This document shows, piece after piece, positions 30,984 to 38,589 of a DNA stretch of 64,000 nt; position 1 is the first letter of the stretch; the number at the start of each line of letters is the position of its first letter. The DNA is from a phage, in assembly GCA_036611895.1 (NCBI GenBank), contig GCA_036611895.1_4766.1, one strand, 5' to 3'. The notes under the pieces were generated by a model. The model ran no database searches and was not told the DNA's origin. It saw only the letters and a program-made list of their open reading frames with translations. A program made the position numbers and the translations under genes.

Positions 30984-31036
30984 CGCTTATTCTCCTAAAT
31001 ATGATTAATAACCAAAAGCTGCGGAGCAGCTATTAC

Positions 31037-35480: not shown

Positions 35481-35519
35481 TTACATCATCCATAAGACGC
35501 GGAGCGTCTTGGTTTTGGC

Positions 35520-35789
35520 TTACCAATACATAGCTGCTGTGCCTTCTTCGGCAAAGAACTCATCTAAGCTGTTTTGATTTTCTTTACGGAACTGACGACG
35601 CAGCTTACGGATTTGTTTCTTGGTAGGTTTAGCAGGGAAACTGTAGTCAACAACCAGAGGCATTCTGGTTTCTTCACATACTTCAGAGAACCATAACTGC
35701 CACTCTGCTGCAGCAGGGATGTGTTGCTGCTTACCAAAAACCGGTTGCTTAGTACCACCAACATAGAACAGGTCAGTATTAAATTGCAT
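35520..35789 (-). CDS. hypothetical protein
   Basis: 89-aa ORF with a basic C-terminal stretch. Confidence 0.4.
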   Translation of the reverse strand: MQFNTDLFYVGGTKQPVFGKQQHIPAAAEWQLWFSEVCEETRMPLVVDYSFPAKPTKKQIRKLRRQFRKENQNSLDEFFAEEGTAAMYW

Positions 35790-35842
35790 GAGTAAACTCC
35801 TGAATTAAAATGATATCCAATAGAAGCGGAGCTTCTTGGTTT

Positions 35843-36214
35843 TTAAGGAATGTAGGACAACCAGGTTAATAGTTCTGCTTTAGCTTTCTGATACTTACTG
35901 TCTACAGTTTCATCTGAGATATCTATGTCTGATTCTCCGTAATGATGGATGTCAGACTGATATTGCTCTTGCTGGCGAATGGCTTCCTCGAATCTATTTA
36001 ATGCTTCAATAGGTTCTTGTTTTTGCCATACCCATAAAGCACCTGCAAGAGGTAGATTGTCATCTTTGTACCAACGTGGTCCTATTCCAGATACACACTT
36101 TAATTTACTATCTTCAGTAAGAATGAATCTTCCTGGTGAGTGAAATTTTCCTACTAGTTCTGTTCCTACAGGAACATCTTTAGTTAATGATTTTACGCAA
36201 ATGTACTTAGCCAT
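35843..36214 (-). CDS. hypothetical protein
   Basis: 123-aa ORF. Confidence 0.4.
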   Translation of the reverse strand: MAKYICVKSLTKDVPVGTELVGKFHSPGRFILTEDSKLKCVSGIGPRWYKDDNLPLAGALWVWQKQEPIEALNRFEEAIRQQEQYQSDIHHYGESDIDISDETVDSKYQKAKAELLTWLSYIP

Positions 36215-36265
36215 TATCTATCTCCAAAGTAGATAGTTATCTACTTTTGACTATCTATCTAATGT

Positions 36266-36295
36266 TCAAAACAGGAGACTCCGAAGAGTCTCCTT
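36266..36295 (-). terminator. rho-independent terminator
   Basis: Plus strand CAAAACAGGAGACTC-CGAA-GAGTCTCCT; 9-bp stem then a T-rich tail in minus sense. Confidence 0.5.
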
Positions 36296-36301
36296 GATGA
36301 C

Positions 36302-36625
36302 TTAGTCTTTAGTCAGGATGTCAATTACTTTGGAATATTCTGCGTTATAGATCCGAGCGTTCTCTGAATCCTTGCAGAATTCCTCGATACTTTTCTTACG
36401 CAGAGTCTCAGTCATAGCTGTTTCCTCTGCCAGTTTATTAACAAAGGTATGCATTTCTAATTTAGTACGAATGGCTTGTTTCTCTGCCATAGTACTAACA
36501 TATGAATTAAGCATACCTACTGCTTTAGTTGCTGTGCTGAATGTATCTGCAACAGTAGTAGCAGCTGAGTTAACAGTACCAAGTAAAGTTCCTGCGGTCA
36601 TACGTACAGTAGCTTGAGTAGTCAT
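36302..36625 (-). CDS. hypothetical protein
   Basis: 107-aa ORF with GGAG RBS. Confidence 0.45.
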   Translation of the reverse strand: MTTQATVRMTAGTLLGTVNSAATTVADTFSTATKAVGMLNSYVSTMAEKQAIRTKLEMHTFVNKLAEETAMTETLRKKSIEEFCKDSENARIYNAEYSKVIDILTKD

Positions 36626-36859
36626 GATGATAGCTCCAATAGTTGATGATAGGACGACATGTCCATAACATGCGGAGCATGTGTAACGTGTAAGGTGGGG
36701 TAGGGTAGTGGCTACACCGTCAACATACCGGGGGGGCTAGTTGAGTGTAAGGGTGTAGCCCCAGCCACACCACTATGGCTGTACATAGCTATCACAATTT
36801 TGACATGCAAAAATATTATAGGCACTATCTCTATAAGCAGATAACTTTGAGGTACTAAC

Positions 36860-36985
36860 ATGAAAGATGGATGGGGTAACTACAATCCTACAGACCCTGA
36901 GAACTGGCTTCACTTTATTGCATGGGCTTGCGCTGTAGGATTCATAAGTATTGTGCTCTTATCACTGGTTCTATCTTATCTGTAA
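36860..36985 (+). CDS. plus-strand micro-ORF encoding a single-TM peptide (41 aa)
   Basis: GAGG RBS 7 nt before the ATG; MKDGWGNYNPTDPENWLHFIAWACAVGFISIVLLSLVLSYL; TTGACA at 36798-36803 upstream; lies antisense within the minus-strand early block. Confidence 0.3.
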   Translation: MKDGWGNYNPTDPENWLHFIAWACAVGFISIVLLSLVLSYL

Positions 36986-37012
36986 ATACTATGGGGGATA
37001 GCTATTTATCCC

Positions 37013-37147
37013 CTATTCATCATAGCGTTTAATACCTAAAACCTTGTATAGCTTACCCTTTACAAGCAATGGTCCACCTACTTCTACGAAAGCTAGGCTG
37101 TGTACTATCACTGGTTCAAGTAAGCCTTTTACTGTTATATACCACAT
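37013..37147 (-). CDS. micro-protein (44 aa)
   Basis: ATG with AAGGA RBS; below the track cutoff. Confidence 0.3.
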   Translation of the reverse strand: MWYITVKGLLEPVIVHSLAFVEVGGPLLVKGKLYKVLGIKRYDE

Positions 37148-37183
37148 ATTAATCCTTATAAGCAGTTAAATAGGAGGAAGTGG

Positions 37184-37588
37184 TTAGTAGCTATCTGTGA
37201 TACCAAAGGACATATGATAACCACCTGTGTTTACATCCCAGGGTTGCGACAAATTAATATCCCAAGGAAGTGTCTTTCCAGATTCAAGTATTCTTATAGA
37301 CCTGAAGGAGTTACCCTCTTTTATCATACTGGTTTTTACTGTTACCGGTAGGAAGATATGGAAGTAATCCCCTTCTGGTGCAAGGTAAGTATCTCCTTCA
37401 TTGAGGGTAACTATCTTTGCTTTGCTGTTAGTGAGAAGTCTATGCCCCTGTGCAAAATCTGCTAACTCTCCTGGTTCCATTATTAGTGTAGAACTCCCAT
37501 AGGTCATAATATGGATGATTGCTTTTTCTGGTTCAGAGGAATAGTGCAGTAAATCTGTACCATTCATCCCTAAGAGTTTAACGTTCAT
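37184..37588 (-). CDS. early paralog-family protein, divergent member
   Basis: Weak match to the family core (IIHIMTYGSSTLIMEPGELADFAQGHRLL). Confidence 0.4.
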   Translation of the reverse strand: MNVKLLGMNGTDLLHYSSEPEKAIIHIMTYGSSTLIMEPGELADFAQGHRLLTNSKAKIVTLNEGDTYLAPEGDYFHIFLPVTVKTSMIKEGNSFRSIRILESGKTLPWDINLSQPWDVNTGGYHMSFGITDSY

Positions 37589-37591
37589 ACT

Positions 37592-37876
37592 TCAGTACCT
37601 TTCCTTATAGATGGGGGTGCTATCATCGAATGATAGGATGTACTTGTCTGTATTAAGATGCCAAGGACTAAAGCTACCCTGCCAGGACATAGGTGTTTCT
37701 GGTTCAAGTAGATGTACTACCGAATTCTTATTGTATAGGAAGAGTAATCCTTGTATCTCATGTAGAGACTGTTCATCTGGAACCAAGATAAGTACATCAG
37801 CATTCAGGTCAGCTATTTCTTTATGGTGGATGTAATTTTCCCCATTAGGCTCTGGATAAATTTTACTGATAACCAT
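37592..37876 (-). CDS. early paralog-family protein
   Basis: Core ILVPDEQSLHEIQGLLFL...HLLEP. Confidence 0.5.
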   Translation of the reverse strand: MVISKIYPEPNGENYIHHKEIADLNADVLILVPDEQSLHEIQGLLFLYNKNSVVHLLEPETPMSWQGSFSPWHLNTDKYILSFDDSTPIYKERY

Positions 37877-38196
37877 TAGAGACTCTCGTCGCTAGATAAA
37901 TATGAGGTAGAAGGGTAGAGGGTAATAAGTCTACCGGTAAGGGTAGTAACTACCGTAGGTTCAGCAGTTGATAAGATATATACTCGTGCAAACTCAGATA
38001 TCTCAACTGATGTATCTATCTTAGTGAATGTAATGGGTATGCCTAACATTAGACATGTACCTATGAACTCATCTGCTTCTTCATTTGGTTCATATAGGAT
38101 AGTAGTTCCATCCATCTTACCATTTAAACAATCTTGTTTAGTTACTTTGCTGCGATAGCAACTTGTACTTAGAGCAACTAATGAGTAGAAGTGCAT
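37876..38196 (-). CDS. early paralog-family protein, divergent member
   Basis: Core TILYEPNEEADEFIGTCLML. Confidence 0.4.
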   Translation of the reverse strand: MHFYSLVALSTSCYRSKVTKQDCLNGKMDGTTILYEPNEEADEFIGTCLMLGIPITFTKIDTSVEISEFARVYILSTAEPTVVTTLTGRLITLYPSTSYLSSDESL

Positions 38197-38199
38197 GGC

Positions 38200-38589
38200 T
38201 TACTTCCTTACATAGTAATAATGGTATTCCTCATTCTCATGACTACTATCCCATTGGTAATCATCAGATACCAACATGAAAGGCAGGGCGTCATATGCAC
38301 TGCTATCGGCATAGACGGAAGGAGGAATGATACATACAACCTTACGATCATTACCTGCTAAGAATAGTTGACCTCTTACTTCATGGTAGTCCTCTAGAGT
38401 AGGAACCAGGATTACATGCTGAGGATTGCTATCTATCACTTCTTCTAAAGTGAAGTCTGTTGTGTACAAGGATTCCCCTTTAATAAAACTGGGGGCGGTC
38501 AGTATGAATTTCATGATGGATTTTCCTTCCTTTAGGAATAGGTCTGAAGTAAACGGAAAGTGTTTTATTAAAGAGGTTATGTTCAACAA
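38200..38589 (-). CDS. early paralog-family protein
   Basis: Core ILVPTLEDYHEVRGQLFL...CIIPP; likely true start is the Met of MKFILTAPSF at 38514. Confidence 0.5.
   Translation of the reverse strand: MLNITSLIKHFPFTSDLFLKEGKSIMKFILTAPSFIKGESLYTTDFTLEEVIDSNPQHVILVPTLEDYHEVRGQLFLAGNDRKVVCIIPPSVYADSSAYDALPFMLVSDDYQWDSSHENEEYHYYYVRK

Follow-up and report, generated by a model that had tools for sequence, protein, structure and literature searches.

What does the 558-bp stretch at positions 36626-37183 of the phage contig GCA_036611895.1_4766.1 represent, and does the 41-codon open reading frame (ORF) on its plus strand encode a protein? We analyzed the contig as one stretch of 64,000 nucleotides, referred to below as the window. 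A previous reading made from the letters alone (the sequence-only reading) had described these 558 bp as a non-coding island in the early gene block, harboring an antisense micro-ORF for a single-pass membrane peptide in an arrangement reminiscent of type I toxins. The explanation that we favor, with a probability of about 0.72, is that the stretch consists of the joined ends of a linear N4-like genome, whose terminal repeat has been collapsed to one copy, and that the micro-ORF is a real accessory gene, which was acquired by, or exchanged with, K1-5-like Autographiviridae and is horizontally mobile. The stretch is mostly ordinary N4 biology that looks odd through the permuted assembly, and it is very probably not a toxin-antitoxin locus.

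The stretch probably joins the two ends of an N4-like genome

A 1.5-kb query around the micro-ORF matched 61 phage records at 80-99% identity. Almost all of these are Escherichia, Shigella, and Klebsiella phages of the genus Gamaleyavirus (N4-like phages, family Schitoviridae), and by sequence similarity the window is an N4-like coliphage of this genus. Because none of the 61 records reaches 80% coverage of the query, the region is mosaic. Two features belong to the junction:

36367-36768, no strand: direct terminal repeat of the virion DNA, about 402 bp, placed by homology to the N4 left end, the IME11 termini, and the direct terminal repeat (DTR) of Mimir124
36302-36625, minus strand: homologue of the early gene gp1, with its start inside the terminal repeat

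In IME11, a Gamaleyavirus that is approximately 91% identical to the window here, read-start peaks lie 401 bp apart, and the reads begin with AATCTTTGCAG... and GTGGCTGGGGCTACACCC... (PMC3896407). These terminal sequences are placed at 36367 on the plus strand and at 36768 on the minus strand of the window, respectively. The Mimir124 record annotates a 403-bp DTR at the equivalent place. Nucleotides 1-153 of N4, whose record begins 153 bp upstream of gp1, align with the minus strand of the window from 36767 down to 36626, with TGGTGGGGCTACACC of N4 corresponding to TGGCTGGGGCTACACC of the window, and the St11Ph5 record ends at the window equivalent of 36766. The repeat boundaries were taken from the homologous positions in IME11 (401 bp), Mimir124 (403 bp), and N4; repeats of this type are expected to measure approximately 390-440 bp and to occur at both ends of the virion DNA. 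On this mapping, 36367-36768 would be a direct terminal repeat of the N4 type, with 36768 (+/-1) as the gp1-proximal physical end (the "left" end of N4) and 36367 as the other end. Since the repeat sequence is present in the window as a single copy, the assembly has collapsed it. The boundaries of many GenBank entries cluster at 36358-36380, a further sign of a physical DNA end. The individual starts and ends of the relatives' records fall near 36358, 36365-36368, and 36380; this spacing of about 10 bp recalls the heterogeneous end reported for N4, or may reflect the choices of submitters.

The stretch thus falls into two parts. Positions 36626-36768 belong to the terminal repeat and comprise the gp1 leader, a hairpin promoter, and an inverted repeat; in the virion DNA, they are the initial ~140 bp. 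Positions 36769-37183 are the unique right end, the last unique DNA ahead of the right-hand repeat copy. The gp1 homologue is 66% identical to N4 gp1 (E 7e-51; phrog_5020, E 1.3e-44), and a gp2 homologue is 67% identical to N4 gp2. With the junction at the terminal repeat, the genes below 36625 are the left-end early genes of N4, and those above 37184 are right-end genes of the gp70-72 neighborhood, followed further on by late genes, including terminase, on the plus strand. Placement of the stretch within the early block is therefore incorrect, as it spans the collapsed repeat with left-end early genes on one side only. Between the gp1 and gp2 homologues, the window also carries two minus-strand ORFs, 35520-35789 (89 aa, phrog_2375) and 35843-36214 (123 aa, phrog_24403); N4 has none there.

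A search of complete E. coli genomes with 36767-37183 returned no DNA match, so that no host or prophage source was seen at the DNA level. An Rfam scan of 35500-38500 with E up to 10 gave only eukaryotic snoRNA and miRNA matches at chance level, and ARAGORN found no tRNA within 36626-37183. Elsewhere in the window, ARAGORN called three tRNAs on the minus strand at 688-843 and 1904-1975 (Ile-AAT, Ala-CGC, and one with an undetermined two-base anticodon). The significance of the analysis is mainly that of a correction: the supposed non-coding island is an assembly junction of two DNA ends with well-understood N4 features, and annotators of permuted N4-like assemblies should expect such a pattern.

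The micro-ORF very probably encodes a membrane peptide related to K1-5 gp49

The unique right end carries the micro-ORF and its proposed signals:

36849-36985, plus strand: Shine-Dalgarno sequence GAGG (36849-36852) and the 41-codon micro-ORF (36860-36985, ATG to TAA)
36800-36828, plus strand: candidate sigma-70 promoter TTGACA-17-CACTAT, read from the sequence, with a weak -10 hexamer

The sequence-only reading was accurate on the ORF itself, which encodes the 41-aa peptide MKDGWGNYNPTDPENWLHFIAWACAVGFISIVLLSLVLSYL, and on its GAGG ribosome-binding site (RBS), situated 7 nt ahead of the ATG. The proposed C-terminal transmembrane (TM) helix is likewise borne out, as the segment is strongly hydrophobic, with a best 19-residue Kyte-Doolittle window of 2.58 at residues 20-38. 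As for the promoter, the TTGACA is present 60 nt upstream (36800-36805), but the promoter is weak: its -10 hexamer, CACTAT, matches the consensus at 3/6 positions and falls below the threshold of our promoter scan, which reported only ATCACA-17-TATTAT.

Several ORFs of 41-49 codons occur within the same 558 bp, and a 41-codon ORF is not unusual here. Because ORFs of this size are common in the stretch, the evidence for the micro-ORF is its conservation and not its mere existence. Intact copies are found in the window, HK2, VTCCBPA_322, PE007, and PBM-2/3, there are no indels among the five GenBank copies that were aligned, and the ORF is already annotated as a hypothetical protein in HK2, VTCCBPA_322, and PBM-3. 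Further copies are present in two metagenome proteins and two IMG/VR contigs, one of which (L016) encodes a divergent 39-aa variant that is 77% identical. Counted as independent, eight copies preserve frame and length. Pairwise ratios of nonsynonymous to synonymous polymorphism (pN/pS) range from 0.06 to 0.36, with about 0.2 as a round figure. Start, stop, and RBS are kept in every aligned copy (39-41 codons), with the exception of an in-frame nonsense mutation in the UE-S5a group.

Family libraries were searched with both the peptide and gp49 of phage K1-5, and nothing was found in Pfam, NCBIfam, or PADLOC. PHROGs queried with the peptide returned only weak matches driven by the TM helix (E 0.019), to PHROGs of unknown function, and a search for homologous proteins identified only two near-identical 41-aa proteins. 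Two phmmer matches (P0003 and P0004) were discarded as compositional matches to long repetitive proteins, and an IMG/VR match (L017) was rejected, since it consisted only of the heptapeptide PTDPENW inside an unrelated 104-aa frame.

The informative relative is K1-5 gp49 (AAR90089), a 42-aa hypothetical protein of a Vectrevirus in the family Autographiviridae, MLKDGWVSYDPTDPKNWLQVIAIACAGSLLAALMYSLWMYTK. The peptide matches it in tblastn with an E of 5e-5 against 2.3 Gb (reciprocal E 1e-6) and in phmmer with an E of 1.3e-6 against 1.8 billion protein representatives. The two proteins are similar in length (42 versus 41 aa), are 46-49% identical, and share an N-terminal motif, KDGW..Y.PTDP.NW, followed by one hydrophobic helix, with the hydrophobic window at residues 20-38 in both. 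Alignment with the gp49 family reveals 14 invariant columns, 11 of them within the first 16 residues (K2, D3, G4, W5, Y8, P10, T11, D12, P13, N15, and W16). At the DNA level, identity to the K1-5 gp49 gene is only about 77% over 61 nt, with no similarity in the flanks. The family is rare, occurring in 12 Vectrevirus and 9 Gamaleyavirus records of the 50,697 searched.

Judging from frame and length conservation, pN/pS, and the similarity to K1-5 gp49, the micro-ORF very probably codes for a protein, and the suggestion of a small single-pass membrane peptide gene is very likely correct. By sequence, the peptide is a member of the K1-5 gp49 family, and the micro-ORF is thus a new member of an uncharacterized, already annotated family of small proteins.

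The micro-ORF and gp72 form a module bracketed by direct repeats

Downstream of the micro-ORF, the minus strand is not free of genes, as had been claimed. Together with the micro-ORF, the following features make up a compact module:

36827-36852, no strand: direct repeat D1, copy 1, 26 nt, equal to the micro-ORF 5' leader plus RBS
36991-37016, no strand: stem-loop, candidate two-way terminator between the convergent micro-ORF and gp72
37013-37147, minus strand: N4 gp72 homologue, 44 codons, with an AAGGA RBS and a full-length phrog_19797 match
37152-37177, no strand: direct repeat D1, copy 2, which precedes gp72 on the minus strand and shares 77% identity with copy 1

The 44-aa ORF at 37013-37147 shares 68% identity with N4 gp72, matches phrog_19797 over its whole length (E 1.9e-28), and is already annotated in VTCCBPA_322, St11Ph5, and pSb-1. 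We found no paper that characterizes the function of either N4 gp72 or K1-5 gp49. The two D1 copies bracket a 325-bp module that consists of the micro-ORF (plus strand), the shared stem-loop, and gp72 (minus strand). The stem-loop, an inverted repeat (I8), has a predicted RNA folding energy of -14.1 kcal/mol (z -3.3) and a terminator-like match on the minus strand. The micro-ORF lies in the unique right end, with leftward late-gene polarity and convergent with gp72, and not antisense to an early transcript as the sequence-only reading had it.

No hairpin separates the two ORFs in IMG/VR contig 3300006879_000003 (L016, 3001-3229), where a 39-aa micro-ORF and a 46-aa gp72 share 32 nt at their 3' ends. 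In the window, the 12 nt at 36960-36971, which belong to the TM codons of the micro-ORF, recur without mismatch as a direct repeat at 37106-37117, within gp72 in antisense (TATCACTGGTTC). The chance expectation in 650 bp is about 0.01 repeats of this kind, and the repeat may be a coincidence or a trace of the cassette's origin.

The module is gained and lost among relatives

Comparison with related phages revealed the following states of the module:

Whole module present: VTCCBPA_322, PE007, and HK2 (the homology of HK2 to the window stops at 37118, inside gp72)
Micro-ORF present, with a different gene in place of gp72: PBM-3 and UE-S5a
Stop at micro-ORF codon 14: UE-S5a
Deletion of 36883-36994 between GGGGTA microhomologies, leaving 7 codons: St11Ph5 and 24-32N
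gp72 without the micro-ORF, arranged much as in N4: pSb-1
Single D1 copy with nothing between: G7C and Mimir124

In total, the micro-ORF gene is absent from pSb-1, G7C, Mimir124, IME11, ECBP1, and N4. Conservation in relatives had been named as a check by the sequence-only reading: intact copies with low pN/pS exist, and in other relatives the gene has repeatedly been lost, truncated, or interrupted by a stop. From these comparisons, the micro-ORF is a dispensable accessory gene that is easily gained and lost. Should it have a phenotype, this would be cheap to test with the natural knock-outs St11Ph5, 24-32N, and UE-S5a, and it would be one more example of the small membrane proteins of phages, which are mostly uncharacterized.

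Conserved elements in and next to the terminal repeat

The remainder of the stretch and its immediate surroundings contain three further elements:

36699-36771, no strand: terminal inverted repeat with core arms GGCTACACC (36710-36718) and GGTGTAGCC (36752-36760)
36791-36822, no strand: conserved element ATCACAATTTTGACATGCAAAAATATTATAGG, close to the repeat boundary on its outer side, shared by relatives that have the micro-ORF and relatives that lack it, and recognizable in N4
36668-36682, plus strand (template): predicted early promoter of the N4 type for the virion RNA polymerase (vRNAP), P1 equivalent, with the hairpin ACATGC-GGA-GCATGT

The 9-bp arms of the inverted repeat had been noted before as lying just upstream of the micro-ORF. 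They are present as described, but belong to the terminal repeat, where they form a conserved N4 element with no connection to the micro-ORF. The inverted repeat extends imperfectly to 20-nt arms, encloses a 33-nt spacer with a poly-G tract (36730-36736), and is situated 8-58 bp from the DNA end. In its N4 counterpart, a poly-C tract separates GGCTACAC (nt 7-14) from GTGTAGCC (nt 52-59), and the element is kept in all aligned Gamaleyavirus relatives. When folded as single-stranded DNA, its energy is unexceptional (z -1.5); we consider it real because N4 conserves the same element at the same place, and not on the grounds of folding. A role in end formation or replication may be envisaged. The poly-G tract varies from 6 to 12 G across relatives (L008 and others) and corresponds to a 9-nt homopolymer in N4; it could be a conserved feature or a sequencing-prone homopolymer.

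The element at 36791-36822 includes the TTGACA of the candidate micro-ORF promoter. As it is present in relatives lacking the micro-ORF and recognizable in N4, it predates the micro-ORF, and it could be a packaging site or a promoter. On the minus strand, the element contains a perfect TATAAT (36820 down to 36815), which is kept by N4 and would direct transcription into the terminal repeat; no convincing -35 hexamer was found for it. The -10 hexamer CACTAT of the plus-strand promoter straddles the start of the segment that is absent from pSb-1 and N4, and only its last base lies within D1.

Promoters of the N4 vRNAP are defined by a GC-rich heptamer centered at -11, flanking inverted repeats that form a 5-7 bp stem with a 3-nt loop, G at -11 and -10, A at -12, and a start 8 nt below position -8 (PMC4496689). 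The site at 36668-36682 agrees with this definition, having the core GCGGAGC, a GGA loop, and a 6-bp stem. Its predicted +1 is 36664, with template CC at +1/+2 as in N4 P2, and transcription is predicted to proceed toward lower coordinates into gp1. Promoters for the injected vRNAP occupy the early-gene template strand close to whichever genome end is first into the cell. The hairpin accordingly resides on the plus strand, the template for the minus-strand gp1, approximately 90-100 bp from the mapped terminus at 36768, and its position is that of the N4 hairpin GTTGC-TTC-GCAAC (nt 90-102). The stem sequence differs from that of N4 P1 through compensatory changes (GTTGC...GCAAC in G7C and N4 versus CATGC...GCATG in the window), while the hairpin is kept. 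Here again, the folding of the region as single-stranded DNA is not exceptional (z -1.5), and it is conservation, not folding energy, that argues for the hairpin. On this evidence, we predict that the stretch contains an early promoter of the P1 type.

The heptamer GCGGAGC occurs at four positions on the plus strand of the window (31021, 35499, 35826, and 36672), each time as part of a perfect hairpin whose 6-7 bp stem differs in sequence from the other three and which has CC at +1/+2, and all four hairpins are on the template strand of the early region. The three outside the stretch (31017-31031, 35494-35510, and 35822-35836) also have GGA loops; the hairpin at 35822-35836 precedes the 89-aa ORF, and that at 35494-35510 precedes gp2. 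N4 is described with three early promoters, compared with the four candidate sites in the window. The PE007 record (L008, marked UNVERIFIED) contains a 27-bp insertion adjoining the P1 hairpin, at the window equivalent of ~36676.

Proposed expression and function of the peptide

Leftward transcripts from the right half of the N4 genome are made by the host sigma-70 RNA polymerase (PMC4496689). The micro-ORF has this polarity and is located at the far right of the unique sequence, which is why a promoter of the sigma-70 type is meaningful here. We propose that the host sigma-70 RNA polymerase would transcribe the micro-ORF from TTGACA-17-CACTAT, starting near 36835 and with late (leftward) polarity, that translation would initiate from the GAGG, and that transcription would end at the shared hairpin. 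The product would then become a single-pass peptide of the inner membrane.

The N-terminal 18 residues are acidic and conserved, with a net charge of -2, and K1-5 gp49 has a single lysine after the helix. According to topology rules, a short acidic N-terminus and a lysine following the helix favor an N-out orientation. The peptide may thus be oriented N-out, with the conserved motif KDGW..Y.PTDP.NW probably facing the periplasm, where it might modulate an envelope function, for example in superinfection exclusion or by acting on a host membrane protein. Because the gene is dispensable and horizontally mobile, our guess is that the peptide acts as an accessory ("moron"-like) effector of the host envelope at the inner membrane.

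Several observations weigh against the explanation that we favor. The compared micro-ORF sequences are few and closely related, and third codon positions account for 13 of the 24 variable sites, which amounts to a marginal bias (p 0.07). The frequent loss of the micro-ORF indicates that it contributes little under laboratory propagation. The -10 hexamer of the candidate promoter is weak, and the TTGACA is older than the micro-ORF and was conserved for another reason. The stem-loop at 36991-37016 has poor U-tracts on both strands, which speaks against a terminator role. Lastly, family libraries assign no function to the peptide, and the function proposed above is drawn from size, topology rules, and analogy only.

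Alternative explanations

The marginal third-position bias, the abundance of ORFs of this size in the stretch, and the relatives that do without the micro-ORF would all agree with an untranslated shadow ORF, whose conservation would reflect constraint on terminus-proximal DNA, such as packaging or replication signals. The neighboring element at 36791-36822, which is conserved without coding, sets a precedent for this. However, the peptide shows homology at the protein level to K1-5 gp49 of an unrelated phage family, with modest DNA identity and dissimilar flanks, and pN/pS is well below 1. Start, stop, and RBS are also kept outside the UE-S5a group, and the segment is not needed for end functions, because it is absent from N4 and pSb-1. 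A shadow ORF, which the sequence-only reading had considered equally possible, is therefore unlikely.

Similarly improbable is a late lysis-timing factor, i.e., a small holin, antiholin, or membrane disruptor. The single TM helix, the small size, and the late-gene polarity, which fits transcription by the host polymerase, are in line with such a role, and the last gene of T7 (which shares its family with K1-5), 19.5, is likewise small and hydrophobic but not homologous. Nevertheless, the C-terminus (...SLVLSYL) is uncharged and lacks the charged tail of holins. In addition, the neighbors are gp72 and the terminal repeat, with no adjoining lysis gene and no linkage to an endolysin or spanin, no PHROG lysis annotation was found, and most Gamaleyaviruses lyse without the micro-ORF.

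A more far-reaching idea, for which we see little likelihood, is that gp49-type peptides are mobile "terminal" accessory genes exchanged between unrelated coliphage families, always beside the right terminal repeat, and that in Gamaleyaviruses their expression depends on RNA pairing with the convergent operon of the right end. Pairing would occur through read-through across the shared hairpin, or between D1 copy 2 and the RBS of the micro-ORF. If true, this would represent a type I-like, antisense-controlled membrane effector in a strictly lytic phage, perhaps serving superinfection exclusion or the switch-off of a host envelope function.

The least probable explanation is the type I toxin-like arrangement of the sequence-only reading, in which a membrane-damaging peptide would be restrained at the mRNA level by antisense RNA from gp72 read-through or by D1 pairing in trans. 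In its favor, the peptide is small and hydrophobic, and the convergence of the micro-ORF and gp72 on one hairpin resembles some type I loci (in L016, the two 3' ends overlap by 32 nt). RNA made from the minus strand of D1 copy 2 would also have ~77% complementarity to the leader of the micro-ORF, RBS included. Against it, we found no separate antisense RNA gene or promoter and no Rfam match, and none of Pfam, NCBIfam, and PADLOC linked the peptide to a known family of toxins. The peptide has a polar N-terminus, a C-terminal helix, and no charged tail, which is the reverse of the layout of typical type I toxins. Furthermore, gp72 is a conserved protein gene that N4 has although it lacks the micro-ORF. 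D1 is more simply explained as a scar of recombination, given the one copy with nothing between in G7C and Mimir124, and the easy loss of the micro-ORF alone in UE-S5a and St11Ph5 argues against a tightly balanced toxin.

Overall, the sequence details of the sequence-only reading were reproduced, and its small membrane-peptide gene withstood the analysis, whereas the gene-free strand, the early-block placement, the antisense relation to an early transcript, and the type I toxin framing did not, and the promoter proved weaker than described.

Comparison with known systems

Similar to the convergent type I loci par/Fst and TxpA/RatA, the stretch contains a gene for a small hydrophobic peptide that converges on another transcript over a shared hairpin. 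It differs from them in that no antitoxin RNA gene was found, the peptide has no similarity to their families and the opposite polarity, and the partner is a conserved protein gene.

The resemblance to T7 gene 19.5 is a positional analogy only: this small (49-aa) hydrophobic ORF is likewise the last gene ahead of the right terminal repeat of a coliphage, but shares no sequence similarity with the micro-ORF.

The relationship to K1-5 gp49 is closer. Besides the homology described above, the gene is the one nearest to the right terminal repeat in both phages, and it is uncharacterized in both. A few Gamaleyaviruses and K1-5-like phages thus have in common a tiny membrane-peptide gene beside the right terminal repeat. 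In K1-5, however, gp49 points toward the terminus as the last gene of a rightward block, whereas the micro-ORF points away from it and stands alone. The helix sequence and the C-terminus also differ, with K1-5 gp49 ending in YTK and the window peptide in uncharged residues, and the flanks are unrelated.

The closest match for the stretch as a whole is the genome end of N4. Both share, with clear sequence homology, the order of terminus, inverted repeat with a homopolymer tract, hairpin promoter, and gp1, and in both gp72 is the last gene ahead of the right repeat. The distance from gp72 to the repeat boundary is 244 bp in the window versus 77 bp in N4, the latter measured from gp72 to the end of the N4 record, and the extra DNA is the micro-ORF cassette.

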